Shown here in pieces: positions 5,473 through 22,956 of a stretch of DNA of 24,000 nt. A program made the translations under genes and the position numbers. The stretch comes from an uncultured Paraprevotella sp. (GTDB lineage Bacteria; Bacteroidota; Bacteroidia; Bacteroidales; Bacteroidaceae). The DNA is taken from contig URKA01000002.1 in assembly GCA_900548345.1 (NCBI GenBank), positions 146,127 through 170,126 on the forward strand, in the 5' to 3' direction. Position 1 is the stretch's first letter; each line of letters begins with the position of its first letter. The notes beneath the pieces are model-generated. The model was not told where the DNA came from and did no database searches. It saw only the letters and a program-made list of their open reading frames with translations.

Positions 5473-6840
5473 TTATTTTGTTTGGTTGTATAATGTTCCT
5501 GCGGCTTTACGGTATTTTACGTAGTTCAGGTAGAGTTGGTATCGCGCATCGACTGTGGTTTCGTATGCCTGTTGCCAAAGAGCCTGTGCTTCCAGATGGT
5601 CGGACAGAGTTTCCATACCCACATCGAACTGGCTTTTGCTCACTCTCATGTTCTCCGTAGCCTGTTCTAATGAACGGTCGGCCAGTATGCATTCCATTTT
5701 AGCCTCATCCAGGTTGTTGGCGGCTTGTGTCAGTTCCAGTAGCATCTGTTCGTTGAGGTTTTCCCTTTCCAGACGGGTTTGTTCCAGCTTGGCTTTGGCC
5801 GCTTTCACTTTGTTGGTGCGTTCGCCGAAATGATAGACGGGTATGCTGACATTCAGCAGTACGGCGAAACTGCCTTTGTCGAAGAAAGTCTCGTCGTTCA
5901 ACTCGAATCCGTGTAAATAGTGAACTCCTCCTTGTATGCCGACCTTTGGAAGCAGCTCGCTGCGGCTTAGCTTGATTTGTTGCTGCGCGATGCTTTCCTG
6001 TTTTTCCAGAATGGTGTATTCAGGCCTTGACGAGACATCGGATATCTGCGGGGATATGTGTTGCTCGATTTCAGGGAAACCTTCGGCCACGGTAATCGCT
6101 TCGTTCAATGGTTTGCCGATAAGGTGGCAGAGGTTCATCGTGGCCAGTCTCAGAGCATTGTCGGCCTTGCGCATGGAAAGCTCGCTCTCGTTCAGTTTCA
6201 CCTGTACTTTCAGCACATCGTTCTGCGCCTTTAAGCCATGTTTACGTGCGCTTTCCACATTGCGGAGCAGTTCGGACAGCAGAGCGTTGTATTTTGCGGC
6301 AACTTTCTTCATTTCTTGTGCCTTGACCACCTGTGCGTAGGCATTGTCGGTTTGCAGTATCACATTGGTTGCCGTCAGCGTTTCGTTCATCTGTGCCATT
6401 TCGTGGCCCAATACGGACATCTTGTAGGCCGCCTGTATCTTTCCGCCCATATACAGCGGCTGTTCCAGTTGTATACCGGCGAAAAACATGGGGCCAACCT
6501 TGTAATTCAGGTCCAGGCCTGGAAAGTAGGCAAAGGCGGGCATTTGCTGAGGGACTCCGTTGGGCCCCATGGCGAAGAGAGGAAGTTGTCCGCCGCCGGA
6601 ACTGTAACCGCCGTCGGCCGTACTGTAAAGTCCTGTCGCGCTGGCCGTGAGGTTAGGGAAGAAATTTCCTTTATAACTCTTGACCGTGTATCGTGTGCTT
6701 TCCGTCTGTTTGACGGATGCCGCCATTTCCTTATTATAGGTCAGCGCCATATCCCTGCATTGTTTCAGGTTGAGAGTTTCCTGTGCTATGGCCGGGAATG
6801 ACACGCATGCGGCTGTGATGGTCAGAATAAGTTTCATCAT
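5473..6840 (-). CDS. TolC-family outer-membrane efflux protein
   Basis: 455 aa with the signal peptide MMKLILTITAACVSFPAIAQE and a two-repeat coiled-coil/beta-barrel OEP-like sequence. Its start overlaps the RND stop by ATGA (6837-6840). Confidence 0.85.
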   Translation of the reverse strand: MMKLILTITAACVSFPAIAQETLNLKQCRDMALTYNKEMAASVKQTESTRYTVKSYKGNFFPNLTASATGLYSTADGGYSSGGGQLPLFAMGPNGVPQQMPAFAYFPGLDLNYKVGPMFFAGIQLEQPLYMGGKIQAAYKMSVLGHEMAQMNETLTATNVILQTDNAYAQVVKAQEMKKVAAKYNALLSELLRNVESARKHGLKAQNDVLKVQVKLNESELSMRKADNALRLATMNLCHLIGKPLNEAITVAEGFPEIEQHISPQISDVSSRPEYTILEKQESIAQQQIKLSRSELLPKVGIQGGVHYLHGFELNDETFFDKGSFAVLLNVSIPVYHFGERTNKVKAAKAKLEQTRLERENLNEQMLLELTQAANNLDEAKMECILADRSLEQATENMRVSKSQFDVGMETLSDHLEAQALWQQAYETTVDARYQLYLNYVKYRKAAGTLYNQTK

Positions 6841-9800
6841 TTGGTCTGTTTTATGTGAAAGAATAAGGCGTAAAGAATAGGTATGAAGATTAGTGTGACC
6901 AGTGTTCCGAACAACAGTCCGCCCATGACAGAGGCAGCCAGCGAGCCGAACATGGCATCGGTCAGTAACGGAATCATGCCTAAAATTGTGGTAAGCGAGG
7001 CCATCATGACGGGACGCAGGCGGCTCTGTGCACTGTCGGTCAGTGCTTTGACCGGTTCCACGCCTTCATTCAGTTGTAACGTGATTTCGTCCATCAGCAC
7101 AATACCGTTCTTGATAATCATGCCTATCAGTCCGAGTGTGCCCACTATAGCCACGAAATTAAAAGTCTTGCCTGTGATGAGCATGATGGCTACCACACCG
7201 ATGAAGACCAACGGAATGCAACAGAAGATGATGGCAGGCTTGCGGTAGTCCTTGAACAACATGATGAGTATGCCTATCATCAGGATAATGGCCAACGGGA
7301 ATGTACTGAACAGGTACTTCATGGATTTGGTGTTGGCGGCCTTTTCTCCTTGCCATTGCAGGGTATATCCCGCCGGCAGTTCTATTTGGTCTATTTTCGC
7401 GGCAATGGCCTTGCGGGCCTTTTCCGTTTCGATACCCGGTACCGGCGAACATTGCACACGCTGGCTGCGTTGGCCGTCATACCTTGGTACAACAGGGTCT
7501 TCCCATCGGATGTCCACTTTTTTGCTGACTTGTTTCAACGGAGTCGTGGTCATGATATTCTCCACCAAATCTTCTTTGGACAATGTTCCGCTTTTCAACT
7601 TTACAAGCATTTCTTCGTTGACCAATCCGCTGAGTGAGGGGAGTGAAGAGAATACTTGCGTGTTGTCCAAATCATTGATGGGCATTCCCTGTTCGTCCAA
7701 ACATTTCAGGTAAATGTTGTCTTTATGTATGCCTTCATAGAAAGAACCGATGGGAATGCCGCTTGTGGCAGTCAGAAGCGACAGGCTGACATCGTTCCGG
7801 CTCAGTCCCAATGAACGTGCGGCCGGTTGGTCGTATTCCACCGTAAGTACGGGCACCTGAGGGTCCCAGTCGGTGGTTATCAGTTCCACTTCGGGAGAAA
7901 GCTCCATGATGGCGCGGGCACTGTCGGCAAGTTGGTGCAATACGGCAGGGTCCGGACCGAGGAACTGTGCTTCGATGGGATATTTCTTGAACATCAGATT
8001 GTAACGTTTCATCTTCACGTAAGCATCCGGATAGTGTGCTGTCAGGTAGTCCTGAATCTCTTCCATGTTATCCACGAGAGCATCGGAAGATTTAAAGTCG
8101 ATGATGAGTTCGCCGTAGGCTAATGACGGATTGGCTATGCTGCGCACGAGGTTGTAACGTCCGGGAGTTCCTCCGATGGAAGTCGTTACATGGGTAATTT
8201 CGTCCCGGCTTTTCAGGTAAGCCTCAATTTCTTCTAGGTCGTGCTTTACTCTTGTGGAGTTGTTACCTTCCGGAAGTTTGTATTCCATATACATTTGGTC
8301 GTATACCATGTCGGGGAAAAATCCCTGACGCATGTAATTGTAGCCAAGGACGGAAATTCCCAATAGCGTAATCATGGTAATGACGAACGTCCAGCGGTGA
8401 TGCAGGCCGAAGTTCAGGATTGAGCGAAGAATGGCGTATGCCTTTCCGTCGTACCTTCTTGGTTCCTGCGATGTCTGCACTTCAGATTTCAGATAACGGT
8501 TGGCCATCAGAGGGACATGTACCAATGCCAATATCCAACTGAGCAGAAGCGATACAGCCAATACGATGAACAGGTCTCTTGTATAGATTCCGGCCGTGTC
8601 TGGTGAGAGAAAGATGGGCAGGAAGGCTATGATGGCTATCAGGGTGGCTCCCAACAGCGGCATGGCTGTCTGGCGTCCGATGGTCGTCATGGCTTCCATC
8701 CGGTTCTTGCCGGCTTTCAGGTCCACAAGGATGCCGTCGTCGATGACAATGGCATTGTCTACCAGCATACCCATGGCCAAAATGAAAGCGCCTAACGAAA
8801 CGCGTTGCATGGTGCCGTCCATAAACTGCAGGAACAGGAATGAACCGAATACCGTGACAATTAAACTGACACCGATAATCATCCCGCTTCGGAATCCCAT
8901 GGCAATCATCAGTACCAACACGACAATGATGACGGATTCAATCAGATTGATGACGAATGTGCCCAACGATGATCCCACGCGGTCCGGTTGGTGGAATACT
9001 TTATGGAATTCCACACCGGCAGGGAAACGTTCCGTTTTCAGTTGTTCCAATTTGTCTTCCACTTCGCTGCCTACTTTCATGATGTCTGTTCCGCTTGCCG
9101 CGGCTATCAGAATGCCGATGGAACGTTCGCCGTCGTAGAACATTTCGTTACGGGTGGGAGATTCGTATTCTTTTTCTATCTTTGCGATGTCGTTTAGGCG
9201 AAGCTGGTCATCGTCATGTCCTTGTATGAGCATGTTACCGATGTCGTCGACGGTTTTGAATTTGTTGTTCACCGTCACCCGTATGCGGTTGTTCCCATTG
9301 TCGAAATATCCGGTATATGTGGTCTGGTTTTGTCCATTCAGGGTGGCCAGAACTTCTGCAGGCTTCACGCCCAAGTTGGCCATACGGTCTTGCAATAAAG
9401 ATATGTTGATACACTCCGGCCGTTGTCCGTACAATTCCACACGGTCTACTCCGTCAAGTTCTATAAGGTTGCGCTTGATTAGTTCCGCATAGTCCGCCAG
9501 TTCACGGTCGGTCAGTCCGTCTCCCGTTATGGCATAGAACATGCCGTATACATTTCCGAAATCGTCCTTGACAATAGGTTTTCCTGTTCCGGAAGGTAAT
9601 GATGCTTGCGCATCGTTGACTTTTCGGCGCAGCATGTCCCAGCATTGTTCTATATCGTCTTCCTTTACTGTACTCAGAAGTTCTACCTGAATCAGTGAAA
9701 GGTCGTTATATGAGTAACTTTCAATGTTGTCGATATTACCCATTGTGCGGATTTCCTTTTCCAGCACGTCTGTTACTTCCAATTCCACCTGATGTGCCGA

Positions 9801-9965
9801 GGCACCGGGATAAGTGGTTACAATCATGGCCAGTTTGACTTTGATTTCCGGGTCTTCCAGTTTGCTCATCTGGTAACAGGACCAAATGCCTCCGGCCATG
9901 AGGATGGCGATGAAGAAATAAATCAGTTTCTTGTTCTGAAATGCCCATTTGCTGAAATCCATCAT
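6837..9965 (-). CDS. RND efflux pump permease (AcrB/AcrD/AcrF family)
   Basis: 1042 aa with the 12-TM, two-large-loop architecture typical of hydrophobe/amphiphile efflux pumps. It overlaps the adaptor gene by ATGA at 9962-9965. Confidence 0.95.
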   Translation of the reverse strand: MMDFSKWAFQNKKLIYFFIAILMAGGIWSCYQMSKLEDPEIKVKLAMIVTTYPGASAHQVELEVTDVLEKEIRTMGNIDNIESYSYNDLSLIQVELLSTVKEDDIEQCWDMLRRKVNDAQASLPSGTGKPIVKDDFGNVYGMFYAITGDGLTDRELADYAELIKRNLIELDGVDRVELYGQRPECINISLLQDRMANLGVKPAEVLATLNGQNQTTYTGYFDNGNNRIRVTVNNKFKTVDDIGNMLIQGHDDDQLRLNDIAKIEKEYESPTRNEMFYDGERSIGILIAAASGTDIMKVGSEVEDKLEQLKTERFPAGVEFHKVFHQPDRVGSSLGTFVINLIESVIIVVLVLMIAMGFRSGMIIGVSLIVTVFGSFLFLQFMDGTMQRVSLGAFILAMGMLVDNAIVIDDGILVDLKAGKNRMEAMTTIGRQTAMPLLGATLIAIIAFLPIFLSPDTAGIYTRDLFIVLAVSLLLSWILALVHVPLMANRYLKSEVQTSQEPRRYDGKAYAILRSILNFGLHHRWTFVITMITLLGISVLGYNYMRQGFFPDMVYDQMYMEYKLPEGNNSTRVKHDLEEIEAYLKSRDEITHVTTSIGGTPGRYNLVRSIANPSLAYGELIIDFKSSDALVDNMEEIQDYLTAHYPDAYVKMKRYNLMFKKYPIEAQFLGPDPAVLHQLADSARAIMELSPEVELITTDWDPQVPVLTVEYDQPAARSLGLSRNDVSLSLLTATSGIPIGSFYEGIHKDNIYLKCLDEQGMPINDLDNTQVFSSLPSLSGLVNEEMLVKLKSGTLSKEDLVENIMTTTPLKQVSKKVDIRWEDPVVPRYDGQRSQRVQCSPVPGIETEKARKAIAAKIDQIELPAGYTLQWQGEKAANTKSMKYLFSTFPLAIILMIGILIMLFKDYRKPAIIFCCIPLVFIGVVAIMLITGKTFNFVAIVGTLGLIGMIIKNGIVLMDEITLQLNEGVEPVKALTDSAQSRLRPVMMASLTTILGMIPLLTDAMFGSLAASVMGGLLFGTLVTLIFIPILYALFFHIKQTK

Positions 9966-11029
9966 AACATTCCTCCTATATTGGTTTTGCTTGTCGGTGT
10001 GAGCGGGTGTACATTCTCACCGTTTTGGATATGGTGTACGCCGGACGATACGATAATGTCGCCGGATTTGAGATGTTCTGAAGTCACGATGGCACTTCCG
10101 TCACTCTGTAATCTGAGGAGGTTGACAGGACAGTTGCAGACTTTTCCGTTCGATGGGTTGTATTTGAAAACGGAAGTTTTCCCCGCTTTTATCAAGACTG
10201 CACCGGCCGGAATGTTCATAGGTTTGTTATGGATGGTGTCACAGAGTATCGTCACCATGGTATTCATGCCCGGAGAAGGAAGGGGGGATTGGTGTTCCTT
10301 TAGTTTCAGGCGCATGGTGTACAATTGGTTGGCGTTGGCTTTCGGTGTGACGGAAACAGGTTCCAACTGATATGCCTTTCCGGGATAGATATCAAAAGTA
10401 CAATGATAAGACTGAAAATGTTCGCGGCGGATATACTCAGCTGCAGGAAGGTTGATTTCTACATCCGGCTGTCCGTTGTCGATAATGGAAATGACAGGCA
10501 TTCCGGCGCCAACCGTTTCGTAGGCATTAAACAAATGTTTCTGAACGTATCCGTCGAACGGCGCGTATAGTTTGGTATATGCCAATTGTTCTTTATGATG
10601 ATTATATTTGGCTGTGATTTGTTTAAGGCCGTATACGGCTTTGTCATTGGCATTTTCCGTGGTTCCCCCTTCTTTATATAATGCCATGACTCTTTCTGCT
10701 TCGGCCTTGATTTGTTTGTATTCCGCTTCGGTAGCGTCCAATTGTATCTTGTAATCGGTGGGGTCGAGTTCGGCCAATAGTTGTCCCTTCCTGATCCGTG
10801 TTCCTTCTTCGGCGTACATCCTTTGTATGGTTCCGCTGACTTTGAATGCCATATTGATATCTTCGGAAGCTTTTACCTTTCCTGGATATTGAATCATAGT
10901 AAGTTCATTTGCCGGTTTTACGGTGTCGGTCTTGACTGTTTGGACCGTGTCTTTGACGGATTGTTGATGTGAGCAGGCAGTCAGTATGAAGATGCCCAGA
11001 AATCCCGATATTAAATAATCCTTTTTCAT
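9962..11029 (-). CDS. RND efflux periplasmic adaptor (membrane fusion protein, HlyD-type) lipoprotein
   Basis: 355 aa with the lipobox FILTAC, followed by lipoyl/coiled-coil/beta-barrel MFP-like sequence. It is the first gene of the adaptor-pump-OMP operon. Confidence 0.9.
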   Translation of the reverse strand: MKKDYLISGFLGIFILTACSHQQSVKDTVQTVKTDTVKPANELTMIQYPGKVKASEDINMAFKVSGTIQRMYAEEGTRIRKGQLLAELDPTDYKIQLDATEAEYKQIKAEAERVMALYKEGGTTENANDKAVYGLKQITAKYNHHKEQLAYTKLYAPFDGYVQKHLFNAYETVGAGMPVISIIDNGQPDVEINLPAAEYIRREHFQSYHCTFDIYPGKAYQLEPVSVTPKANANQLYTMRLKLKEHQSPLPSPGMNTMVTILCDTIHNKPMNIPAGAVLIKAGKTSVFKYNPSNGKVCNCPVNLLRLQSDGSAIVTSEHLKSGDIIVSSGVHHIQNGENVHPLTPTSKTNIGGML

Positions 11030-11063: not shown

Positions 11064-11197
11064 TTTGGATTCGGATGGATGTAAAAGTCTGATAAGGATA
11101 TTTTTTTGTTCGATTTGTAGGTTTTTAACGTAAAAAATAGCAAAAAGTTCTTCGATATGTATTTATTTTGTGCTGTTCATTTCATTTAAGTCAAACC

Positions 11198-12082
11198 ATG
11201 GCACAATCATCTTATCCTGTCAAGATTACCACCTTTTCCGAGGCGGATTTGTCTCCTTTCGTCCGGGGGCGTATCCTGTCTACACTTGACAAGTGTGGAA
11301 TGTTCTTTTGCAGGAAGGGCGAAGTTGAAATGGAGATAGACGGAACTCCTTATATAATAAGGAAAGGAGATGTTTATTTCTATATGGCTTCGGCGTTGGT
11401 CAGGCTGAACCGTAGGAGTCCGGATTTGGAGGGAGTCATATTGGAAGTTGACCTTGATTATATTCTTCCGGTTTCTCACAAAGTCATGACGATTGAAGAT
11501 ATATTGTTTTTGCGTGATCATCCCTGTGTTACGTTGACCGAGGCCCAGTATGCATATCTGGAGCGGTTGCTTGAAATGTATGGACGGCGGGCAGGCATGG
11601 ATGAGGATGCATCAGGCGGCATGCAAATTCGTTTTCTGCAAAATGAATTGATGAAATCATACGGTCAACTGTTGTTTTGCGAATTGATGGTGATTTATTA
11701 TGCTCATAAAAGCATGCAGCCTGTATCGAGAAATCAGACGGACTACATATTCCAGCGTTTTTTACTGACGTTGTTCCGTTGTTACCGTCGGGAACGTGAT
11801 GTGGTGTTTTATGCGCATGAGCAGAATCTGACGGCACGTTATTTCTCTTCCATTATCAAGGAAAAGTCCGGAAGAACAGCCTTACAATGGATTGTGAGGA
11901 TGGTGATTTCCGAATCCAAGCAACTTTTGGAAAGTTCCGATATGAGTATAAAGGAGATTGCCATGCAGTTGAACTTTCCCACGCAATCTTTTTTCGGAAA
12001 ATATTTCAAGCAGTATGTAGGGATGTCTCCGAAGATGTATCGCATGTCGTTTTTGTCACCTCAAGGCAGGAAGGATGTCTGA
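11198..12082 (+). CDS. AraC-family transcriptional regulator (N-terminal cupin-like sensor plus C-terminal HTH_18)
   Basis: The C-terminus ...ARYFSSIIKEKSGRTALQWIVRMVISESKQLLESSDMSIKEIAMQLNFPTQSFFGKYFKQYVGMSPKMYR is a classic AraC double HTH. The N-terminal KGEVEMEIDGTPYIIRKGDVYF is cupin-like. The ORF track starts at TTG 11168, but I prefer ATG 11198. Confidence 0.85.
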   Translation: MAQSSYPVKITTFSEADLSPFVRGRILSTLDKCGMFFCRKGEVEMEIDGTPYIIRKGDVYFYMASALVRLNRRSPDLEGVILEVDLDYILPVSHKVMTIEDILFLRDHPCVTLTEAQYAYLERLLEMYGRRAGMDEDASGGMQIRFLQNELMKSYGQLLFCELMVIYYAHKSMQPVSRNQTDYIFQRFLLTLFRCYRRERDVVFYAHEQNLTARYFSSIIKEKSGRTALQWIVRMVISESKQLLESSDMSIKEIAMQLNFPTQSFFGKYFKQYVGMSPKMYRMSFLSPQGRKDV

Positions 12083-12176: not shown

Positions 12177-12737
12177 ATGAAAAAGAAAGCGTTGAACTTA
12201 TTGATTGTAATGTTTGTTATGGTTGGATTGGAAGTGAATGCACAAGAAGCAGGACGGGCAAAGAATGTGCTGGTAGCTTATTTCTCATGGTCGGGAAACA
12301 CGCGTGTCGTTGCGGAGCAGATTCGTGAGTTGACCGGTGGAGACTTGTTTGAAATTAAAACGGTGAAGGAATATCCTGAAGAGTACCGCCCTTGTACAGA
12401 AGTGGCCAAGAAAGAGAAAGAGGCCGATGCCCGGCCTGAATTGCAAGGTAAGTTGGAGAATCTGAGCCGTTATGATGTGGTGTTCGTAGGTTATCCGAAT
12501 TGGTGGGGAACGGCACCAATGGCCGTCTGGACTTTTCTCGGCAGTTACGACTGGACGGATAAAACATTGATTCCATTTTGTACGCACGGTGGTGGAGGAG
12601 AGCAAAACTGTTTTAAAGATTTTGTGAAACACAAAGGAAAGGCCCAGGCCAAGAAGGGATTTATCACGAACGGCGGTCGGGTGAACGTAGCCCGTCCCCA
12701 AGTGGGAAAGTGGTTGGCTGAGATAGGTTTGAAATAA
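12177..12737 (+). CDS. Flavodoxin-like protein (Flavodoxin_4 type) with an N-terminal Sec signal peptide
   Basis: The N-terminus MKKKALNLLIVMFVMVGLEVNA/QE looks like an SPI signal and has no Cys. The mature part starts VLVAYFSWSGNTRVVAEQI, a flavodoxin FMN-phosphate loop pattern, and also contains YPNWWGTAP. Confidence 0.8.
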   Translation: MKKKALNLLIVMFVMVGLEVNAQEAGRAKNVLVAYFSWSGNTRVVAEQIRELTGGDLFEIKTVKEYPEEYRPCTEVAKKEKEADARPELQGKLENLSRYDVVFVGYPNWWGTAPMAVWTFLGSYDWTDKTLIPFCTHGGGGEQNCFKDFVKHKGKAQAKKGFITNGGRVNVARPQVGKWLAEIGLK

Positions 12738-12762
12738 AATACATATCATAAAGAGTTGGCTT

Positions 12763-14262
12763 ATGTTGAAGAAAATCAGGCTGGCGGCAGCGTGCATCTG
12801 TTTTGTATTGGTTACTTTGCTTTTTCTCGATTTTACGGGGGTGGCGCACACTTGGTGGGGGTGGCTGGCCAAAGTTCAGTTTATCCCGGCGTTGCTTGCG
12901 TTGAATGCCATGGTCGTTGTGGTGCTGGTTTTGCTGACTTTATTGTTCGGCAGGGTTTATTGTTCGGTCATTTGTCCGCTTGGCGTTTTTCAAGACGTTG
13001 TTTCTCATGTGGCCGGAAAGCACAAGAAGAACCGTTTCCGTTATTCTCCGGCCGTTTCATGGCTGCGTTACGGAATGTTGGTATTGTTCATATTGCTATG
13101 GATTGCGGGAATGTATGCCGGCATTGCGGGTCTCGGTGCATTGTTCGGGCTTTTGGAGCCATATAGTGCATACGGGCGGATGGCATCCAACTTGTTTGCC
13201 CCGCTTTACCGTTGGGGGAATAACCTGTTGGCATACGGAGCGGAACAAGTTGACAGCTATATGTTCTATTCGGTTGATGTCTGGATGAAAGGAGGACTGA
13301 TAACTGGAGTGGCGGTGTTGACATTCCTTTTATTGGTGTTTCTGGCATGGCGTGGCGGGCGGACTTATTGCAATACGGTGTGTCCGGTAGGTACGATACT
13401 GGGTTTCTTTGCCCGTTTTTCTTGGTTCAAGCCTGTTATCGACAAGACCAAATGCGTGAACTGTCATTTGTGTGCACGTAATTGCAAGGCATCCTGTATC
13501 AATATAAAGGAACATGAGATTGATTACAGCCGCTGTGTGGCGTGTATGGATTGCATCGACAAATGCCCTAAGGGAGCTATTCATTACGTTCATGCCCCAT
13601 CCGGAGAGAAGAGGGGAACGGCCCATACGCCGGATGGCGGGCGTCGTAACTTTCTGACCGTGACATCGTTGTTTGCATTCGGTACGTGGGCAAAGGCGCA
13701 GCAGAAAACTGTGGACGGCGGACTGGCTGTCATTGAAGAAAAGAAAGTTCCGGAGCGGAAAACCCGGTTGACTCCGGCGGGGGCTTTGAGCGCGCGTAAT
13801 TTCTCTTCGCATTGTACGGCCTGTCAGCTGTGTGTGTCGGCTTGTCCCAATGGTGTGTTGCGCCCGTCTTCCTCGTTAGAGAACCTGATGCAGCCGGATA
13901 TGTCTTACGAACGGGGCTATTGCCGTCCGGAATGTGTGCGGTGCTCGGAAGTTTGTCCGTCCGGTGCCATACGTCCGATTACGGTAGCGGAGAAGTCTTT
14001 GGTACAGATAGGTCACGCGGTGTATCTGTATGAGAACTGTGTGGTGAATACCGATGGGGTGGAGTGTGGAAATTGTGCCCGTCATTGTCCTTCGGGAGCC
14101 ATACAGATGGTGCCTTCCGTGGCAGGTGTGCCGGATTCGCCCAAACTGCCGGTCATCAACGAAGAGCGCTGCATCGGGTGCGGTGCCTGCGAGAACCTGT
14201 GTCCGGCCCGTCCTTTCAGTGCCATTTATGTGGAAGGGCATGAAAATCATCGTATCATTTAA
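12763..14262 (+). CDS. Membrane polyferredoxin with a NapH-like N-terminal half fused to a NapG-like C-terminal half
   Basis: Four N-terminal TM segments carry two CX3CP motifs (YCSVICP at aa 66-72, YCNTVCP at aa 202-208). These are followed by CVNCHLCARNC and CVACMDCIDKCP. Next comes GGRRNFLTVTSLFAFGTWAKA (RR at aa 294-295, nt 13642-13647). The remainder holds four further Cys clusters: CTACQLCVSACP, CRPECVRCSEVCP, NC...ECGNCARHCP and CIGCGACENLCP. Confidence 0.85.
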   Translation: MLKKIRLAAACICFVLVTLLFLDFTGVAHTWWGWLAKVQFIPALLALNAMVVVVLVLLTLLFGRVYCSVICPLGVFQDVVSHVAGKHKKNRFRYSPAVSWLRYGMLVLFILLWIAGMYAGIAGLGALFGLLEPYSAYGRMASNLFAPLYRWGNNLLAYGAEQVDSYMFYSVDVWMKGGLITGVAVLTFLLLVFLAWRGGRTYCNTVCPVGTILGFFARFSWFKPVIDKTKCVNCHLCARNCKASCINIKEHEIDYSRCVACMDCIDKCPKGAIHYVHAPSGEKRGTAHTPDGGRRNFLTVTSLFAFGTWAKAQQKTVDGGLAVIEEKKVPERKTRLTPAGALSARNFSSHCTACQLCVSACPNGVLRPSSSLENLMQPDMSYERGYCRPECVRCSEVCPSGAIRPITVAEKSLVQIGHAVYLYENCVVNTDGVECGNCARHCPSGAIQMVPSVAGVPDSPKLPVINEERCIGCGACENLCPARPFSAIYVEGHENHRII

Positions 14263-14277
14263 TTAAAAGACTGTTTC

Positions 14278-15678
14278 ATGGAAAAGAAAGATAAAGGAAT
14301 GAACCGCCGTCGTTTCCTGAAAGTATTCGGTGCCGGTGCGGCTGCCACGACAGCTGCGCTTTACGGTTGTGCCCCCAAGAACGGTGCGTCTTCCGCTGCA
14401 GGCGGGGGTGAGATACCGACCGACAAGATGACTTACCGCACTCATCCCACGAATGGTGACAGGGTGTCTATATTAGGCTATGGTTGTATGAGGCTTCCGA
14501 CTGTAAGTAACGGCAGTGCACGTGAAAGCAAAGACGAAATAGACCAGGAGATGGTGAATAGGCTGACTGATTACGCCCTTGCGCATGGCGTGAATTATTT
14601 CGATACCTCTCCGGCATATTGCAAAGGGCATTCCGAACATGCCATGGGAGTCGCTTTGGGCCGACATCCCCGGAATACATATTATATCGCCACTAAGCTG
14701 TCTAACTTCTCGCCCGACACGTGGAGTCGGGAGGCCTCTCTTGCCATGTATCACAATTCGTTCAAGGAATTGCAGGTAGACTACATCGACTACATGTTGC
14801 TGCACGGCATAGGAATGGGCGGAATGGCAGCCTTTAACGGGCGATACGTTGAAAACGGGGTGCTTGATTTCCTTTTGAACGAGCGGAAGGAAGGACGTAT
14901 CCGCAATTTAGGATTTTCGTATCATGGCGACGTGGATGTGTTCGACTATCTGTTGTCACGACATGAAGAATACAAATGGGATTTCGTACAGATTCAGTTG
15001 AACTATGTGGATTGGCGGCATGCCAAGGAAGTCAACGACAGGAATACCAACGCGGAATATCTGTACGGAGAATTGGAAAAGCGCCATATTCCGGCTGTCA
15101 TCATGGAACCTCTTTTAGGAGGAAGGCTTTCCAATGTGCCCGACCATATCGTAGGGCGTCTGAAACAGCGCCGCCCGAACGACAGCGTGGCTTCGTGGGC
15201 TTTCCGGTTTGCCGGTTCTCCTCAGGGTGTGCTGACCGTGTTGAGCGGAATGACCTACATGGAACATTTGCAGGATAATCTGCGGACTTATTCGCCGCTG
15301 GATGTACTGACCGACGGAGACAAGGAGTTTCTGGAAGAGACCGCACGTCTGATGTTGAAGTATCCTACAGTGCCCTGTAACGACTGTAAATACTGTATGC
15401 CTTGTCCATACGGTATCGACATTCCTTCCATTCTGGTACATTATAATAAATGTGTCAATCAGGGAAATGTTCCGGAAAGTGTGCAGGAAGAGAACTACAG
15501 AAAGGCGCGTCGCGCCTTTCTGGTCGGATACGACCGCAGTGTGCCGCGCTTGCGTCAGGCCGACCATTGTATAGGATGCGGCCAATGCGTGAGCCATTGT
15601 CCGCAGAATATCAACATTCCGAGAGAGCTGCACCGCATAGACGGATTTGTGGAACAGTTGAAACAAGGCACGCTGTAG
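14278..15678 (+). CDS. Aldo/keto reductase with a C-terminal 4Fe-4S ferredoxin domain, a Tat signal peptide and a possible lipobox
   Basis: MEKKDKGMNRRRFLKVFGAGAAATTAALYGC contains the twin-arginine consensus RRxFLK, an Ala-rich h-region and LYGC. The AKR core includes YGCMRLP, NYFDTSPAY, YIATK and DYMLLHG. The C-terminus carries CNDCKYCMPCP and CIGCGQCVSHCP. Confidence 0.85.
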   Translation: MEKKDKGMNRRRFLKVFGAGAAATTAALYGCAPKNGASSAAGGGEIPTDKMTYRTHPTNGDRVSILGYGCMRLPTVSNGSARESKDEIDQEMVNRLTDYALAHGVNYFDTSPAYCKGHSEHAMGVALGRHPRNTYYIATKLSNFSPDTWSREASLAMYHNSFKELQVDYIDYMLLHGIGMGGMAAFNGRYVENGVLDFLLNERKEGRIRNLGFSYHGDVDVFDYLLSRHEEYKWDFVQIQLNYVDWRHAKEVNDRNTNAEYLYGELEKRHIPAVIMEPLLGGRLSNVPDHIVGRLKQRRPNDSVASWAFRFAGSPQGVLTVLSGMTYMEHLQDNLRTYSPLDVLTDGDKEFLEETARLMLKYPTVPCNDCKYCMPCPYGIDIPSILVHYNKCVNQGNVPESVQEENYRKARRAFLVGYDRSVPRLRQADHCIGCGQCVSHCPQNINIPRELHRIDGFVEQLKQGTL

Positions 15679-15679
15679 G

Positions 15680-16105
15680 ATGGAAGAGATTGTCGGAATG
15701 TTGCATGAGGGTGGATATTCCTGTGTGTTGCGCAACGGGGATATATATACTTTTACGCAGCGCGGCGTAGCCGATTTGTTCGATTTGCTGACCCGTCGCC
15801 CCGACCTGCTGAGAGGGGCGGATATGGCAGACAAGGTAGTGGGGAAGGGGGCGGCCGCTCTTATGGTTTTGGGCGGAGTGTCCCGTCTGCATGCCGATGT
15901 ATTGAGCGAGCCGGCATGGCATCTGTTGGCACAATGTGGTGTGGATACGACTTATGGCAGTCTTGTGTCCCACATCATGAACCGTGCCCAAACCGGATGG
16001 TGTCCGGTGGAAAGTCTTTGCCGTGACGCGGCCACGCCGGCCGACTGTCTGACGTTGATAGAAGGTTTCTTGAAAGTAAATGATGTGAAAACAACAATAG
16101 ATTGA
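15680..16105 (+). CDS. DUF1893 (TM1506-like) domain protein; function unknown
   Basis: 141 aa. DKVVGKGAAALMVLGGV...HADVLSEPA...HIMNRAQTGWCPVE matches my recollection of the DUF1893 family. No signal peptide is present. The ATG lies 1 nt after the AKR stop. Confidence 0.7.
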   Translation: MEEIVGMLHEGGYSCVLRNGDIYTFTQRGVADLFDLLTRRPDLLRGADMADKVVGKGAAALMVLGGVSRLHADVLSEPAWHLLAQCGVDTTYGSLVSHIMNRAQTGWCPVESLCRDAATPADCLTLIEGFLKVNDVKTTID

Positions 16106-16108
16106 AAT

Positions 16109-16618
16109 ATGGAAACAACCGTAAAACTGTATACCACAGGGTATACTGAAATGAAAACTTATTTGTTGGCTGCGCTTTTTGTATCGGGCAATATTGTCTT
16201 GCCCCAGCTGTTTCATCTGATGCCCCAAGGGGGGATGATATGGTTGCCTATTTATTTCTTTACTTTGATAGGCGCCTATAAATATGGATGGAAAACAGGT
16301 CTGTTGACGGCAGTCGGCTCGCCGTTGGTCAATTCATGGCTATTCGGTATGCCTTCACCTGCCGTATTGCCGGCCATCCTGCTGAAGTCCGTGTTGCTGG
16401 CTTTGGTGGCCGGTTTCACGGCCTCCCGTCTGAAGCGTGTCAGCATCCCGATTATGTTGGCTGTCGTACTTTTCTATCAGGTGGCCGGAACAGCGGGTGA
16501 ATGGCTCATGAGCGGAAGTCTGACGCTTGCCATGCAGGATTTCCGCATAGGACTTCCGGGTATGGCTTTGCAGGTAGTGGGAGGATATTATTTTGTGAAA
16601 CATTTAATCTTTAAATAA
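16109..16618 (+). CDS. Small polytopic membrane protein resembling an ECF-transporter S-component
   Basis: 169 aa with about 5-6 TM segments. WLPIYFFTLIGAYKYGWKTGLLTAVGSPLVNSWLFGMP resembles the conserved S-component core. No ECF ATPase or T component is present nearby. The start could instead be ATG 16151. Confidence 0.5.
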   Translation: METTVKLYTTGYTEMKTYLLAALFVSGNIVLPQLFHLMPQGGMIWLPIYFFTLIGAYKYGWKTGLLTAVGSPLVNSWLFGMPSPAVLPAILLKSVLLALVAGFTASRLKRVSIPIMLAVVLFYQVAGTAGEWLMSGSLTLAMQDFRIGLPGMALQVVGGYYFVKHLIFK

Positions 16619-16620
16619 TT

Positions 16621-16824
16621 ATGTTTGGAATAGGAACGCAGGAAATACTTTTTATTCTGCTGATTGTTTTACTGTTCTTCGGCGGCAAAAAGATTCCTGA
16701 ACTGATGAAAGGGTTGGGAAAAGGCGTGAAAAGCTTTAAAGACGGGATGAATGGCGTGGACACGCCTGAAAAGGACGAAGGTGTCAAGCATGACGCTCAG
16801 GAACGTGGGAAGGCGGAAGATTGA
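16621..16824 (+). CDS. tatA: Twin-arginine translocase subunit TatA/E
   Basis: 67 aa. MFGIGTQEILFILLIVLLFFGGKKIPELMKGLGKGVKSFKDG shows the canonical TatA TM helix, FG hinge and amphipathic helix. Confidence 0.88.
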   Translation: MFGIGTQEILFILLIVLLFFGGKKIPELMKGLGKGVKSFKDGMNGVDTPEKDEGVKHDAQERGKAED

Positions 16825-16830
16825 ATCGTC

Positions 16831-17637
16831 ATGGCGGAATCTGGAGATAAGAATACGCTGACTTTCTGGGAGCATCTGGATGAGTTGCGGGGCTGTCTGA
16901 TTCGGGCTGCCGTCGTAACGCTTTTGTGTGCCGTGGCGGCTTTCTTTCTGAAAGACGCCCTGTTCGGTATCGTGCTGGCACCTAAGTCGCCGGATTTCGT
17001 GACCTACCGTCTGTTGGAACAGGCGGGTGAATGGGTTTCGGGCGGCGTACAGCCCGAATCTTCCCGTTTCGAGGTCAGGCTGATAAATACGGCATTGACG
17101 GAACAGTTCGTTATCCACATGAAAACAGCTGTTTATGCCGGTGTGCTTTGCGCTTCTCCTTATATACTCTATTTGCTGTTCCGTTTTGTTTCTCCCGCAT
17201 TGTATGCCAACGAACGTCGGTATGCCGTGCGGATGGTCGGTGCGGGGTATGTCATGTTTCTGACAGGTACGCTGCTGAATTACTTTCTGATATTTCCTCT
17301 TACATTACGGTTCCTGGGAACTTATCAGGTAAGTGTGGAAGTGGAAAATGCCATCACTTTACAGTCTTATATGGACACTTTGCTGATGATGAGCCTGATG
17401 ATGGGGATTGTTTTCGAGATACCTGTGCTCTGCTGGCTGTTGGCGCGCATGGGCGTGTTGCGTGCCGGCTTTATGCGGCGTTACCGCAGGCATGCCATCG
17501 TGTTGATATTGACGGTGGCGGCCATCATCACTCCTACGTCGGATGTGTTTACGCTGTTGATGGTCGGCATGCCGATGTGGCTTCTTTACGAATCAAGCAT
17601 CTTCATCGTGCGTGGCGTGGAGGGGAAAATTCATTGA
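16831..17637 (+). CDS. tatC: Twin-arginine translocase subunit TatC
   Basis: 268 aa with a six-TM profile. The N-terminus LTFWEHLDELRGCLIRA and the motif FRFVSPALYANERRY are TatC hallmarks. It starts 6 nt after tatA. Confidence 0.9.
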   Translation: MAESGDKNTLTFWEHLDELRGCLIRAAVVTLLCAVAAFFLKDALFGIVLAPKSPDFVTYRLLEQAGEWVSGGVQPESSRFEVRLINTALTEQFVIHMKTAVYAGVLCASPYILYLLFRFVSPALYANERRYAVRMVGAGYVMFLTGTLLNYFLIFPLTLRFLGTYQVSVEVENAITLQSYMDTLLMMSLMMGIVFEIPVLCWLLARMGVLRAGFMRRYRRHAIVLILTVAAIITPTSDVFTLLMVGMPMWLLYESSIFIVRGVEGKIH

Positions 17638-17976: not shown

Positions 17977-19779
17977 ATGAAAATTAAGCTACGCAGTGCG
18001 CAAAGCACAGAAGGCCGCCGTATGGCGGGAGCCCGCGCCTTGTGGGTGGCCAATGGCATGAAACGCGAACAGTTCGGTAAGCCGATTATCGCCATTGTCA
18101 ACTCCTTTACCCAATTTGTTCCCGGTCATACCCATCTGCATGAAATCGGTCAGGTGGTGAAGGCCGAGATTGAGAAGATGGGATGTTACGCCGCCGAATT
18201 CAACACGATTGCAATCGACGACGGCATCGCGATGGGCCATGACGGTATGCTTTATTCCCTGCCTTCGCGCGATATTATTGCCGACAGCGTGGAGTATATG
18301 GTGAATGCGCATAAGGCGGATGCGATGATTTGCATTTCCAACTGTGATAAGATTACACCGGGTATGCTGATGGCCAGCATGCGTCTGAATATCCCTACGG
18401 TGTTCGTTTCTGGCGGTCCGATGGAGGCGCATAAAATCAACGGTGAGAATGCCGACCTGATTACGGCGATGATAAAAGGGGCCGACGCATCCGTAAGTGA
18501 TGAAGAGATGGAGAAGATTGAGGTGTGTGCCTGTCCGGGATGCGGCAGCTGTTCGGGCATGTTCACGGCCAACTCCATGAACAGCCTGACAGAAGCCATC
18601 GGATTGTCTTTGCCCGGCAACGGAACCATATTGGCCACGCACACGAACCGTATACAGTTGTTCCGCGATGCGGCCCGTCTGGTGGTGGAGAATGCCTTTA
18701 AATATTATGAAGAGGGAGACGAGAGCGTGCTGCCTAAAAGCATCGCCACACGTCAGGCCTTCCTGAATGCCATGACGCTCGACATTGCCATGGGAGGCTC
18801 TTCAAACACGGTGCTGCACCTGTTGGCCGTGGCCAATGAGGCCGGCGTGGATTTCAAGATGGCGGATATAGACGCACTGAGCCGTAAAGTGCCCTGTCTG
18901 TGCAAACTGTCTCCCAATACGCAGAAGTATTCCATACAGGAATGTAACCGTGCTGGCGGTATCCTGAATATTTTGGGTGAACTGCACAAGGCCGGTCTGC
19001 TCGATGCTTCGTGCAGGCGCGTGAACGGCAGTACACTGGGAGAGGACATAGATAAGTACAGTATAGTGAAAGCTGCGGCCGACCCTGAGGCGCTTCGCAT
19101 CTACAGCAGTGCGCCCGGCGGTGTGTTCAGCAACAGGATGGGGTCGCAAAGCAATACGTATGAGACGCTCGATACCGACCGTGCCACAGGATGTATCCGC
19201 GATGTGGAGCATGCCTACAGCAAGGATGGCGGACTGGCGGTGTTGTTCGGCAACATCGCGCAGGACGGTTGCGTGGTGAAGACGGCCGGAGTGGATGAAA
19301 GCATCTGGCATTTTTGCGGACCGGCAAAAGTATTCGACTCTCAGGAAGATGCCTGCGAGGGTATACTCGGTGGCAAGGTGGTGAGCGGAGACGTGGTCGT
19401 GATTACCCACGAAGGGCCGAAAGGCGGGCCGGGCATGCAGGAAATGCTCTATCCCACGTCTTATCTCAAAAGCCGCCATCTGGGTAAGGAATGTGCCTTG
19501 ATAACCGACGGGCGTTTTTCGGGAGGCACATCGGGGCTGAGCATCGGGCATATTTCTCCCGAAGCGGCAGCTGGAGGCAATATCGGCAAAATCGTGGACG
19601 GGGATATGATAGAAATTGACATACCCGGCCGCAGCATCAATGTGAAACTGAGCGAAGAGGAACTGGCCGCGCGTCCGCAACGGCCGATGACGCGCAACCG
19701 TGTAGTACCGAAATCTTTGAAAGCATACGCTTCGATGGTAAGCTCGGCCGACAAGGGCGGTGTGCGCATTATAGATTAA
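17977..19779 (+). CDS. ilvD: Dihydroxy-acid dehydratase
   Basis: 600 aa. [30 protein letters not shown] and [16 protein letters not shown] are canonical IlvD motifs. Confidence 0.97.
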
Positions 19780-19796
19780 AAAACGACAGACAGAAT

Positions 19797-21494
19797 ATGG
19801 CAAAAGAGAGAATTACAGGCGCGGAGGCACTGATGCGTTCGTTGGAACATGAGGGTGTGGAGACGCTTTTCGGTTATCCCGGAGGTGCCATCATGCCGGT
19901 GTACGACGCTTTGTATGGTTATAGAGACAAACTGAATCATATTTTGGTTCGGCACGAACAAGCGGCTGCGCATGCCGCACAGGGATATGCACGTGTATCC
20001 GGTAAGGTCGGAGTGTGTCTGGTGACCAGCGGTCCGGGGGCGACCAACACCATCACCGGAATCGCGGATGCCATGATGGACAGTACGCCCATCGTGGTGA
20101 TTGCAGGACAGGTGGGGACTTCCATGTTGGGCTCTGATGCGTTTCAGGAGTGTGACCTGGTGGGCGTGACACAGCCTATCAGCAAATGGGCGTACCAGAT
20201 TCGCCGCCCCGAAGATGTGGCATGGGCTGTGAGCCGGGCTTTCTATATTGCAAAAAGCGGGCGTCCCGGTCCGGTCGTGCTGGATTTCGCCAAGAATGCA
20301 CAGGTAGGTATGGTGGAATATGAACCTCAGCCTACGGATTTTATCCGGAGCTACGTTCCTGTGCCCAAAACGGCTCCTGAGGCAGTCCGTACGGCGGCAC
20401 AGTTGATTAATGCCGCCAAACGTCCTTTCATCCTGGTAGGGCAGGGTGTGGAACTGGGTGGTGCGCAGGAAGAAGTGCTCCGCCTGATGGAGCGCGCCGG
20501 CATCCCTGCAGGATGCACCTTGCTCGGACTTTCCGCACTGCCGTCTTCCCATCCCTTGAATATGGGAATGTTGGGCATGCACGGAAGCCTGGCCAATAGC
20601 GTGAAGACACAGGAGTGCGATGTGTTGATAGCCATAGGCATGCGTTTTGACGACCGTATCACGGGTAAGTTGAGCACCTATGCCACGCAGGCGAAAAAGA
20701 TACATTTCGAAATAGACCCCAGCGAAATCAATAAGAATGTGCCGGTTGACGTGCCCGTACTTGGCGATTGCAAGGAGACCCTCTCTGCGTTGCTTGAACT
20801 GGTTGAACCGAATGAACACAAGGAATGGATAGGTAGTTTCCAGGAATATTATGATAAGGAGAACGAGATGGTCATACAGCCTGAAATCCATCCGGCAGAC
20901 GGTCCCATAAAGATGGGAGAAGTGGTGCGTAAGGTGACGGAGATGACGGATAACAAGGCGGTGCTGGTGACTGATGTCGGTCAGAACCAGATGCTGGCAG
21001 CACGTTATTTCATGTTCTCCCAGAAACGCAGTATCGTGACCTCCGGAGGAATGGGCACGATGGGCTTCGGACTTCCCGCGGCCATCGGTGCGACGTTCGG
21101 TGCTCCCGACCGTATGGTGTGTCTGTTCCTCGGAGACGGTGGCATGCAGATGACCATACAGGAACTGGGCACCATAATGGAGCAGCATAGTCCGGTAAAA
21201 ATCATCCTGTTGAACAATAATTATCTGGGCAATGTACGTCAGTGGCAGGAGATGTTCTTCGGCAAACGTTATTCTTTTACTCCCATGGTAAATCCCGACT
21301 ACAATATGATTGCCTCGGCCTACCGCATACCGAACCGTACCGTGGTGGACCGTGGCGAACTGGAAGAGGCCATACAGGAGATGATTGACACCGAAGGGCC
21401 TTATCTGCTTCAGGTGGGCGTGATAGAAGAGGGACGTGTGCTGCCGATGTGCTGTCCGGGTAATGATGTGGATAATATGATATTGGACTATTAA
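19797..21494 (+). CDS. ilvB: Acetolactate synthase (acetohydroxyacid synthase), large catalytic subunit
   Basis: 565 aa. It shows a ThDP-enzyme N-terminus (GAEALMRSLEHEGVETLFGYPGGAI), GPGATN and the ThDP-binding GDGGMQM...NN motif. Confidence 0.95.
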   Translation: MAKERITGAEALMRSLEHEGVETLFGYPGGAIMPVYDALYGYRDKLNHILVRHEQAAAHAAQGYARVSGKVGVCLVTSGPGATNTITGIADAMMDSTPIVVIAGQVGTSMLGSDAFQECDLVGVTQPISKWAYQIRRPEDVAWAVSRAFYIAKSGRPGPVVLDFAKNAQVGMVEYEPQPTDFIRSYVPVPKTAPEAVRTAAQLINAAKRPFILVGQGVELGGAQEEVLRLMERAGIPAGCTLLGLSALPSSHPLNMGMLGMHGSLANSVKTQECDVLIAIGMRFDDRITGKLSTYATQAKKIHFEIDPSEINKNVPVDVPVLGDCKETLSALLELVEPNEHKEWIGSFQEYYDKENEMVIQPEIHPADGPIKMGEVVRKVTEMTDNKAVLVTDVGQNQMLAARYFMFSQKRSIVTSGGMGTMGFGLPAAIGATFGAPDRMVCLFLGDGGMQMTIQELGTIMEQHSPVKIILLNNNYLGNVRQWQEMFFGKRYSFTPMVNPDYNMIASAYRIPNRTVVDRGELEEAIQEMIDTEGPYLLQVGVIEEGRVLPMCCPGNDVDNMILDY

Positions 21495-21506
21495 AGCGAA
21501 TGAAAG

Positions 21507-22085
21507 ATGGAACAGGAAAAGATATTCTATACATTGATAGTTTTTTCTGAAAACTTTGCAGGATTGTTGAATCAGGTCACTGCGGTTTTCACCCGCCGTC
21601 AGGTCAATATCGAGAGTCTGAACGTGTCGGCGTCCAGCATCAGTGGCGTGCACAAATATACCATCACGTGCTGGAGCACGGAAGAGCAGATACAGATTAT
21701 CACCAAACAGATAGAGAAACGTATCGATGTGCTTCAGGCGCATTACTTTACGGATGACCAGATTTTCATACAGGAAGTGGCACTTTACAAATTGTCTACG
21801 TCGGCTGTACTGGAGAATCCGGATATTTCATCGGCCGTGCGGCATCATGGCGCCCAGATTGTAGAAGTGAATCCTACGTATACGGTTGTGAGTAAGAAAG
21901 GCTCTACGGAAGATATTGTGTCGCTGTATCATGCACTCGATGAATACAAGTGTGTGTTGCAATACGTTCGTTCCGGACGGATTGCCATTACGAAGAGTTG
22001 CACGGAATATTTGGATGAATTTTTGAGCGAACGTCAGCGTGTGTATGATGATTTGCAGGCGCAGAAAAAGGAAAACATAGGATGA
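21507..22085 (+). CDS. ilvN: Acetolactate synthase small (regulatory, ACT-domain) subunit
   Basis: 192 aa. IFYTLIVFSENFAGLLNQVTAVFTRRQVNIESLNVS is the ACT-domain N-terminus typical of IlvN/IlvH. It lies immediately after ilvB. Confidence 0.88.
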   Translation: MEQEKIFYTLIVFSENFAGLLNQVTAVFTRRQVNIESLNVSASSISGVHKYTITCWSTEEQIQIITKQIEKRIDVLQAHYFTDDQIFIQEVALYKLSTSAVLENPDISSAVRHHGAQIVEVNPTYTVVSKKGSTEDIVSLYHALDEYKCVLQYVRSGRIAITKSCTEYLDEFLSERQRVYDDLQAQKKENIG

Positions 22086-22849: not shown

Positions 22850-22881
22850 CAATTTATTATGCTTGGTTTGAAATAATTTTG

Positions 22882-22889
22882 TATCTTTG
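22882..22889 (+). promoter_or_regulatory. Candidate internal -7 promoter box ahead of ilvC
   Basis: TATCTTTG at 22882-22889, in the 107-bp AT-rich gap. It lies 68 nt upstream of ATG 22957. Confidence 0.35.
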
Positions 22890-22956
22890 TGACGAAATAA
22901 GTATTAAAAAGAAATTTAATAGAACGCGGTTTAGTCCGCATAAAACAAAAATAGAA

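Follow-up and report, generated by a model that had tools for sequence, protein, structure and literature searches.

We examined a 24,000-nt stretch of DNA from an uncultured Paraprevotella sp. (contig URKA01000002.1, positions 146,127 to 170,126 of the forward strand), referred to here as the window, around an open reading frame (ORF) at 12763-14262. The ORF is real, and its translation gives a product of 499 amino acids (aa), in which Pfam detected two Fer4_5 domains and several Fer4 domains. Fer4_5 is a mark of the NapH/NosR-type membrane module. On these grounds, and with an AlphaFold2 (AF2) model at hand, the whole gene (12763..14262) was annotated as a putative polytopic polyferredoxin, i.e. 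a NapH-like part fused to a NapG-like part. The C-terminal domain is proposed here to reach the periplasm by the twin-arginine translocation (Tat) pathway, and the N-terminal helices to be inserted through the Sec (general secretory) pathway. The gene and all its features described below are on the + strand of the window.

A first-pass annotation of this gene had assigned its N-terminal half to the NapH/MauN layout, with four helices, two CX3CP motifs and two ferredoxin motifs, and all of these were found where they had been placed. There are four strongly hydrophobic segments (aa 7-25, 44-62, 106-124 and 178-196), with Kyte-Doolittle 19-mer peaks of 2.3-2.9. Together with the first CX3CP motif (aa 67-72, CSVICP) and a conserved loop at aa 125-177, which is predicted to be periplasmic, these segments (TM1-TM4) make up a NapH-like membrane module (12781..13350) delimited by hydropathy, AF2 helices, charge pattern and BLASTP to E. 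coli NapH. Within the loop, P133, S135, G138, R139, P147 and N154 are invariant or nearly so among 110 homologues of 34-86% identity. The second CX3CP motif (aa 203-208, CNTVCP) is followed by a ferredoxin domain with two [4Fe-4S] motifs (C231/234/237/241 and C258/261/264/268-P). This part (13369..13569), which is probably cytoplasmic, was identified from its motifs, its invariant Cys residues and the match of the NapH model to aa 181-277.

Further on, the RRxFL segment that had been reported at aa 291-312 is present as given (DGGRRNFLTVTSLFAFGTWAKA). Within it lies an internal twin-arginine (RR) motif, G-R-R-N-F-L (aa 293-298, 13639..13656), which stands out by column conservation and, in alignments, falls on the Tat motif of E. 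coli NapG and on the RR of a polyferredoxin from delta proteobacterium MLMS-1. The motif is followed by a weakly hydrophobic stretch (aa 299-312, 13657..13698, TVTSLFAFGTWAKA), delimited by hydropathy, conservation and AF2, which would serve as a fifth membrane segment (TM5) or as the h-region and c-region of a Tat signal. A basic segment (aa 313-335, 13699..13767; clade consensus Q-E-K-K-V-D-G-G-L-A-x-I-E-D-K-K-I-P-x-R), nearly invariant in 203 distinct Bacteroidales orthologues and recognised also by its charge count, leads to a NapG-like domain with four [4Fe-4S] motifs (13768..14259). This domain, predicted to be periplasmic, is supported by the NCBIfam NapG model, by BLASTP to E. coli NapG and by 16 invariant Cys. 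Its NapG/MauM-like character and the interruption of its third cluster had also been noted before and were recovered here: the motifs are C351-x2-C-x2-C-x3-CP (C351-361), C387-x3-C-x2-C-x3-CP (C387-398), the interrupted C426-x8-C435-x2-C-x3-CP (to C442) and C470-x2-C-x2-C-x3-CP (C470-480). Neither the four Cys of the CX3CP motifs nor any of the 24 Cys in the six ferredoxin-type [4Fe-4S] motifs vary across the 110 homologues.

No in-frame ATG, GTG or TTG occurs between M262 and R294, and thus the NapG-like part is not a separate ORF. Split versions of the protein were represented by four short matches (P0130, P0228, P0209 and P0172), which look like truncated or chimeric metagenomic gene calls rather than natural stand-alone NapG-like genes.

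Both halves showed the kinship that the first-pass annotation had proposed. In BLASTP against E. coli K-12, aa 41-270 aligned to residues 79-271 of NapH (E=4e-7), with both CX3CP and both cluster motifs covered, while aa 290-480 aligned to residues 6-195 of NapG (E=2e-18). NapG is a Tat substrate with four clusters, and its N-terminal Tat signal (PQNGRRRFL…) falls, in this alignment, on the internal PDGGRRNFL… of the polyferredoxin. The NCBIfam models matched the expected halves, the NapH/MauN models at aa 181-277 and positions 29-198 of the NapG model at aa 319-482, with all scores below the family cut-offs (for NapH, TIGR02163 67.6 bits vs 213 and PRK09477 60 vs 234; for NapG, PRK09476 65.9 vs 269 and TIGR00397 60 vs 178.9). 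The matches to the NapG and MauM/NapG models begin at about model position 27-29, just past the NapG signal peptide. Since the scores are far below the cut-offs, both halves are paralogues rather than Nap orthologues. Judged by its sequence, the polyferredoxin joins a NapH-like module, of the membrane quinol-dehydrogenase kind, to an entire NapG-like precursor, with its signal included.

The two halves are homologous to NapH and NapG of E. coli and Wolinella, with the same Cys motifs. Their likely common role with these proteins, which form the menaquinol dehydrogenase of the periplasmic nitrate reductase, is to pass electrons between quinol and a periplasmic enzyme. The arrangement is different, as the window has a single polypeptide in the order H-G whereas E. 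coli has two genes, napG-napH; moreover, no nap genes are found near the polyferredoxin gene, and its partner is an aldo/keto reductase (AKR) instead of NapA/B/C. In NapH, as in the window protein, there are two CX3CP motifs, and its two clusters are cytoplasmic (PMC5928378).

The pattern of an RR followed by an uncharged stretch is not specific when taken alone, and in a single sequence it is only suggestive. When the polyferredoxin was shuffled 200,000 times, RR.[FLIVM][LIVMF] followed by at least 11 uncharged residues turned up somewhere in 1.9% of the shuffles. It is conservation that settles the significance of the internal motif. R295 is found in all of the 203 Bacteroidales orthologues; at position 294, 198 of them have R and 5 have K, while F297 and L298 are kept in 201 and 187, respectively. 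In the 110 more diverse homologues the same column holds RR (86), KR (19) or RK (3) in 108 cases, leaving 2 with another pair. The h-region (aa 299-310) is T/S/A/G-rich in the 203 orthologues, variable in sequence and constant in length. On visual inspection, the segment agrees with S/T-R-R-x-F-L and 13 or more uncharged residues. A chance match to 'RR plus uncharged stretch' was also observed elsewhere in the window, at aa 67-88 (RRLMLFLAAVITVGNTLVALSP) of a major facilitator superfamily (MFS) transporter encoded at 3986-5137 on the - strand.

The fifth segment is clearly set apart from the four helices before it. On the additive Hessa scale, an approximation of the position-weighted ΔGapp used by Tooke et al. 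(PMC5449189), its 19-mer score is +10 vs -0.3 to -3.6 for TM1-4. Its uncharged run covers just 15 aa (N296-A310) and is followed by net positive charge (K311 and K315; 7 K/R vs 4 D/E in aa 313-345).

The charge pattern of the N-terminal half fits the positive-inside rule for an N-in, four-helix module. The N-terminus (aa 1-6), the loop at aa 63-105 and aa 197-296, which would all be cytoplasmic, hold 3, 7 and 16 K/R, respectively; the loops at aa 26-43 (1 K/R) and aa 125-177 (3 K/R vs 4 D/E) would be periplasmic. This N-in topology agrees with that of NapH-type modules as summarised in PMC5928378. The full-length AF2 model, built from a 110-sequence alignment, had a mean predicted local distance difference test (pLDDT) of 90.6 and a predicted template modelling score (pTM) of 0.87, with helices at aa 2-22, 49-62, 99-119 and 178-198. 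As far as a model can tell, such a pTM implies a defined interface between the halves. We also modelled aa 218-499, from the cytoplasmic ferredoxin domain through the linker to the NapG-like domain, using a 43-sequence alignment. In this truncated model (pTM 0.69), aa 292-314 form a 23-residue helix at moderate confidence, and the NapG-like domain is not confidently docked on the cytoplasmic ferredoxin domain alone. Given a pTM of 0.69 for the truncated protein vs 0.87 for the full-length one, a comparison which is indirect as the alignments differ in depth (43 vs 110 sequences), the full-length interface must involve aa 1-217. This is weakly consistent with a predicted docking of the NapG-like domain on the membrane module and its conserved loops, i.e. 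on the periplasmic side. Among solved structures, a sequence search and Foldseek of the AF2 model against the PDB matched generic ferredoxin domains only and no NapH-like membrane module.

A protein of this kind has already been described. Tooke et al. (2017, eLife 6:e26577, PMC5449189) searched genomes for an even number of transmembrane domains (TMDs) followed by an RR motif and then by one more TMD. Their search brought up a five-TMD 'polytopic polyferredoxin' with RR before TMD5, cytoplasmic clusters and four extracytoplasmic ones, which they explicitly described as a NapH-NapG fusion. With the protein of delta proteobacterium MLMS-1 (Q1NSB0), maltose-binding protein (MBP) and AmiA reporters placed after TMD5 were exported only when the RR was intact and Tat was functional, and the low hydrophobicity of TMD5 and the positive charges behind it were reported to govern the release from Sec, so that Tat takes over (PMC5449189). 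Dual Sec/Tat insertion of a NapH-NapG fusion is therefore already known, with experimental support for the deltaproteobacterial member. It is also the precedent of a five-helix Fe-S protein which the first-pass annotation had mentioned, and the RR of the window protein falls on its RR. The dual Sec/Tat reading offered by that annotation is supported by homology, conservation, context and this tested homologue, although the novelty it implied is not, both the mechanism and the architecture having been published in 2017.

The window polyferredoxin shares the traits of this family as set out in the paper: a NapH-like module, the RR, a weak TM5 with positive charge, a four-cluster NapG-like domain and homology to Q1NSB0, and the same Sec-then-Tat assembly is proposed for both. 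BLASTP of the window protein against Q1NSB0, with the comparison confined to residues 1-364 of the latter, gave E=5e-15 over aa 63-298 with 26% identity. There are differences as well. The linker ahead of the RR is shorter in the window protein than in Q1NSB0, and its fifth segment is less hydrophobic (+10 vs +6.7 on the additive scale, 19-mers). Unlike the Q1NSB0 family, the Bacteroidales clade has, past the fifth segment, a [K/R]-A-Q that is nearly invariant, together with the conserved motif KKVDGGLA. Neither a Tat-lipoprotein AKR as partner nor any member of the Bacteroidetes is mentioned for the family in the available part of PMC5449189, where the taxa named are Latescibacteria, Nitrospirae, Caldithrix, Thermoplasmatales, Anaerolinea, Anaeroarcus and a deltaproteobacterium.

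The polyferredoxin gene belongs to a string of seven genes on the + strand, from 12177 to 17637, which are spaced by just 1-25 nt. The next gene downstream (14278..15678, +) encodes an AKR that ends in a 2x[4Fe-4S]-type domain and also has a lipobox (LYGC) and, at its N-terminus, a Tat signal (NRRRFLK), as annotated from Pfam Aldo_ket_red, Fer4_9 and TAT_signal; its N-terminus reads MNRRRFLKVFGAGAAATTAALYGC. We examined the neighbourhood in 83 related loci. A reductase with a C-terminal Fe-S domain adjoins the polyferredoxin in 81 of the 83; all 81 of these reductases have a Tat motif, and 73 have a lipobox-like Cys. Judging from these signals, the reductase should be a periplasmic lipoprotein, and since the Tat signal is found in 81/81 loci, it would need a periplasmic redox partner. 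Motifs resembling the catalytic Asp/Tyr/Lys/His of AKRs (FDTSPAY, ATK, LLHG) were seen in it by eye, and the closest solved structures are remote AKRs only (E=1e-11). Besides the window (14278-15678, +), loci with a Tat-signal Fe-S AKR were L001, L002 and L004-L083.

The last genes of the string are tatA (16621-16824) and tatC (16831-17637), which together span 16621..17637 (+), with gaps of 2 and 6 nt, and were identified by Pfam and by NCBIfam above cut-off. The earlier remark that tatA-tatC share an operon with the polyferredoxin fits this arrangement, as they lie downstream on the same strand within the closely spaced string. No tatB was detected beside them, so the window encodes a minimal TatAC system. 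Both tatA and tatC lie within 5 kb of the polyferredoxin in 16/83 loci. In the distant locus L085 (2470-3586), whose polyferredoxin homologue is 47% identical, tatA-tatC-tatA lies directly upstream of the reductase and the polyferredoxin. Such repeated tat linkage is unlikely to be accidental and, together with the periplasmic Fe-S enzyme next door, it supports the export of the NapG-like domain.

On the basis of homology, conservation, context and the experimentally tested homologue, we consider it highly probable that the window polyferredoxin is inserted by both Sec and Tat. Its four hydrophobic helices would be inserted co-translationally by Sec/YidC in an N-in orientation, with the CX3CP motifs, the two-cluster ferredoxin domain and the remaining chain in the cytoplasm, and the C-terminal domain would fold and receive its four [4Fe-4S] clusters there. 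Sec likely handles the fifth stretch poorly, because it is weakly hydrophobic and has basic residues behind it; its weak hydrophobicity and the net positive charge behind it are the two features that promote release from Sec to Tat according to PMC5449189. The TatAC translocase would then recognise the internal S/G-R-R-x-F-L with the weakly hydrophobic 15-residue stretch and move the folded domain to the periplasmic side, and the stretch would become the fifth membrane-spanning segment. Assembled in this way, the protein may act as a wire between the menaquinone pool and the periplasm, with the adjoining Tat-exported lipoprotein AKR as its likeliest partner.

Several observations weigh against this assembly. 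With 15 residues, the uncharged stretch is short if it is to span the membrane stably. In the full-length AF2 model aa 284-321 have a pLDDT below 50, the sole such stretch of the protein, and no fifth helix is packed into the bundle. The tatA-tatC adjacency is missing in 67 of the 83 related loci, and the isolated aa 284-347 gave no match to the Tat-signal hidden Markov models (HMMs) PF10518 of Pfam and TIGR01409 at E up to 10, short profiles being weak. As a control, the N-terminus of the neighbouring reductase scored 20.8 bits, itself below the cut-off of 22.7. As the profiles are weak and even this clear Tat signal falls below the cut-off, the miss was not counted as a refutation. The profile miss, the short and weak hydrophobic stretch and its lack of structure in the full-length model would also suit a C-terminal four-cluster domain that stays cytoplasmic, making the protein a membrane-anchored cytoplasmic polyferredoxin in which the RR is a relic or has another role. 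We find this very unlikely. A relic would not keep R295 in 203/203 orthologues and RR/KR/RK in 108/110 homologues, plus the F-L behind them; the domain is homologous to a periplasmic Tat substrate whose signal lies inside the alignment; the conserved partner carries a Tat export signal and tat genes recur nearby; and the truncated AF2 model showed no confident docking on the cytoplasmic ferredoxin domain. Furthermore, TMD5 of the homologue exports reporters via Tat, as reported in PMC5449189.

Another way to reach the periplasm would be the insertion of the fifth segment by Sec/YidC, with the C-terminal domain crossing unfolded and acquiring its clusters later, with no role for Tat. Sec is already engaged for TM1-4, and marginal helices can be inserted with the help of neighbouring ones (PMC5449189). 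Such a route is hardly credible here, given a Hessa score of +10 against the negative values of TM1-4 and basic residues behind the segment that disfavour Sec translocation, and it leaves the conserved RR unexplained. It would also have to build [4Fe-4S] clusters in the periplasm, where no machinery for their assembly is known.

With the same Tat export, the proposed assembly has a variant in which signal peptidase I subsequently cuts A312|Q313. The products would be a NapH-like membrane protein of five helices and a NapG-like subunit in the periplasm, either soluble or docked, with its N-terminal Gln perhaps cyclised. Past the h-region, the 203 orthologues have K/R at position 311 (179/203), A312 (201/203) and Q313 (195/203), with L/V/A/I at position 310 in 194/203. 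Behind Q313 follows a nearly invariant x-K-K-V-D-G-G-L-A-x-I-E-D/E-K-K-I/V-P-x-R. The resulting [L/V]-[K/R]-A|Q looks like a site for signal peptidase I and also follows the Bacteroidetes Q-rule, by which Gln occupies +1 in about 71% of the signal peptidase I substrates per species, on average (PMC5837995). Both Sec-type signal peptides in the window, those of an outer-membrane efflux protein (AIA|QE) and a flavodoxin (VNA|QE), obey this rule. In favour of cleavage, the segment has every element of a Tat signal that can be cut off: RR-x-F-L, then an h-region of 15 residues rich in T/S/A/G, and around the cut an aliphatic residue (-3), a basic one (-2), A (-1) and Q (+1). It also aligns to the N-terminal Tat signal of E. 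coli NapG, and AF2 does not pack it into the helix bundle. Q313 is not conserved beyond the close clade (26/110 diverse homologues). In PMC5449189, moreover, a signal peptidase I site was engineered behind an internal Tat-dependent TMD so as to free AmiA.

We nevertheless regard cleavage as rather unlikely. The 20 residues past Q313 are nearly invariant too, and the conservation of A-Q may be structural rather than a matter of processing. The residue at -3 is L in 135/203 orthologues, and L is not preferred at this position of signal peptidase I sites. Besides, the advantage of a fusion is less obvious if its product is cut, our search found no proteomic evidence of the cut, and PMC5449189 describes the family as one that retains TMD5 as an anchor. 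If the cut did occur, one ORF would give rise to two subunits of a quinol-linked redox module on opposite sides of the membrane, in a sort of Tat-dependent 'polyprotein'. The dual insertion of the polyferredoxin has parallels in proteins of other kinds. The actinobacterial Rieske protein (Sco2149/QcrA) and the heme-molybdenum cofactor protein Sco3746 likewise have an even count of Sec helices and then an RR and a Tat-dependent last helix with a cofactor-loaded domain (PMC5449189). They are unrelated to the window protein in sequence and cofactor (2Fe-2S in Sco2149/QcrA; heme b and molybdenum cofactor in Sco3746) and differ in helix number. The same Fer4_5 (PF12801) module with two CX3CP motifs is found in NapH-like proteins of flavinylation-associated systems, such as NosR and PceC/RdhC (Méheust et al. 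2021, PMC8238504), and is regarded as a modular electron conduit to extracytosolic oxidoreductases (PMC8238504, PMC5928378). NosR and PceC/RdhC reach the periplasm via an N-terminal flavinylated FMN-binding domain, whereas the window protein has no such domain and would do so via a C-terminal Fe-S domain exported by Tat.

What is new at this locus is the Bacteroidales clade, the Tat-lipoprotein AKR partner with the recurring tatAC linkage, and the possible processing site; to our knowledge, a Tat-dependent 'polyprotein' of the kind that processing there would create has not been described before. The polytopic polyferredoxin family is hereby extended to gut Bacteroidales, where it is abundant. 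The usual cofactor of AKRs is NAD(P)H, whose presence in the periplasm is not expected, and for this reason a quinone-linked periplasmic AKR would be unusual enzymology. The repeated tatA-tatC linkage suggests that the minimal TatAC system of these bacteria has important clients in the polyferredoxin and the reductase. As Bacteroides species lend themselves to genetics, the assembly pathway and the substrate are both directly testable.

Regarding its distribution, the family has 1,335 representatives at E <= 1e-30 in a 50%-identity library, and, of the 90%-identity protein clusters found, three comprise 638-839 sequences each. The best 80 reference-genome matches are nearly all labelled Bacteroidales (Bacteroides, Phocaeicola, Parabacteroides, Prevotella, Alistipes, Odoribacter, Muribaculaceae and others), with identities of at most 68% among these 80. 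A literature search retrieved no paper on the Bacteroidales polyferredoxin-reductase pair. In L084 (4059-6728), the gene ahead of a more distant polyferredoxin homologue (P0195, 575 aa, 44% identity) is a DUF362 gene, not one for an Fe-S AKR, which suggests that the polyferredoxin module is paired with other partners in other lineages. At the Parabacteroides segnis locus L002 (5094-5984), a 296-aa protein with weak or faint Fer4 matches and, at its N-terminus, a possible Tat motif and lipobox (TRREALKYLG…FTSC) is encoded upstream of the polyferredoxin.

Of the other genes in the string, the first (12177..12737, +) encodes a Flavodoxin_4 protein, as seen from Pfam and its N-terminus, with a Sec-type signal peptide (…LEVNA|QEAG). 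This protein is predicted to be periplasmic and is a possible accessory redox protein there; it is not a conserved neighbour, as a flavodoxin was found near the polyferredoxin in just 5/83 loci. Between the reductase and tatA lie genes for a DUF1893 (TM1506-like) protein (15680-16105, +; Pfam; 34/83 loci) and for a 169-aa multi-helix membrane protein (16109-16618, +; 33/83 loci), the latter with no Pfam match even at E=10. From their recurrence, both may belong to the polyferredoxin-reductase system. The redox gene string may be under the control of an AraC-family regulator, which is found 94 nt upstream of the gene for the flavodoxin. The flanking genes (5473-11029 on the - strand, 11168-12082 and 17977-24000 on the + strand) are ordinary. 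One flank carries a resistance-nodulation-division (RND) efflux operon (outer-membrane factor, RND pump and HlyD-type lipoprotein), and the other a branched-chain amino acid operon (ilvD, acetolactate synthase large and small subunits, acyl-ACP thioesterase and ketol-acid reductoisomerase).

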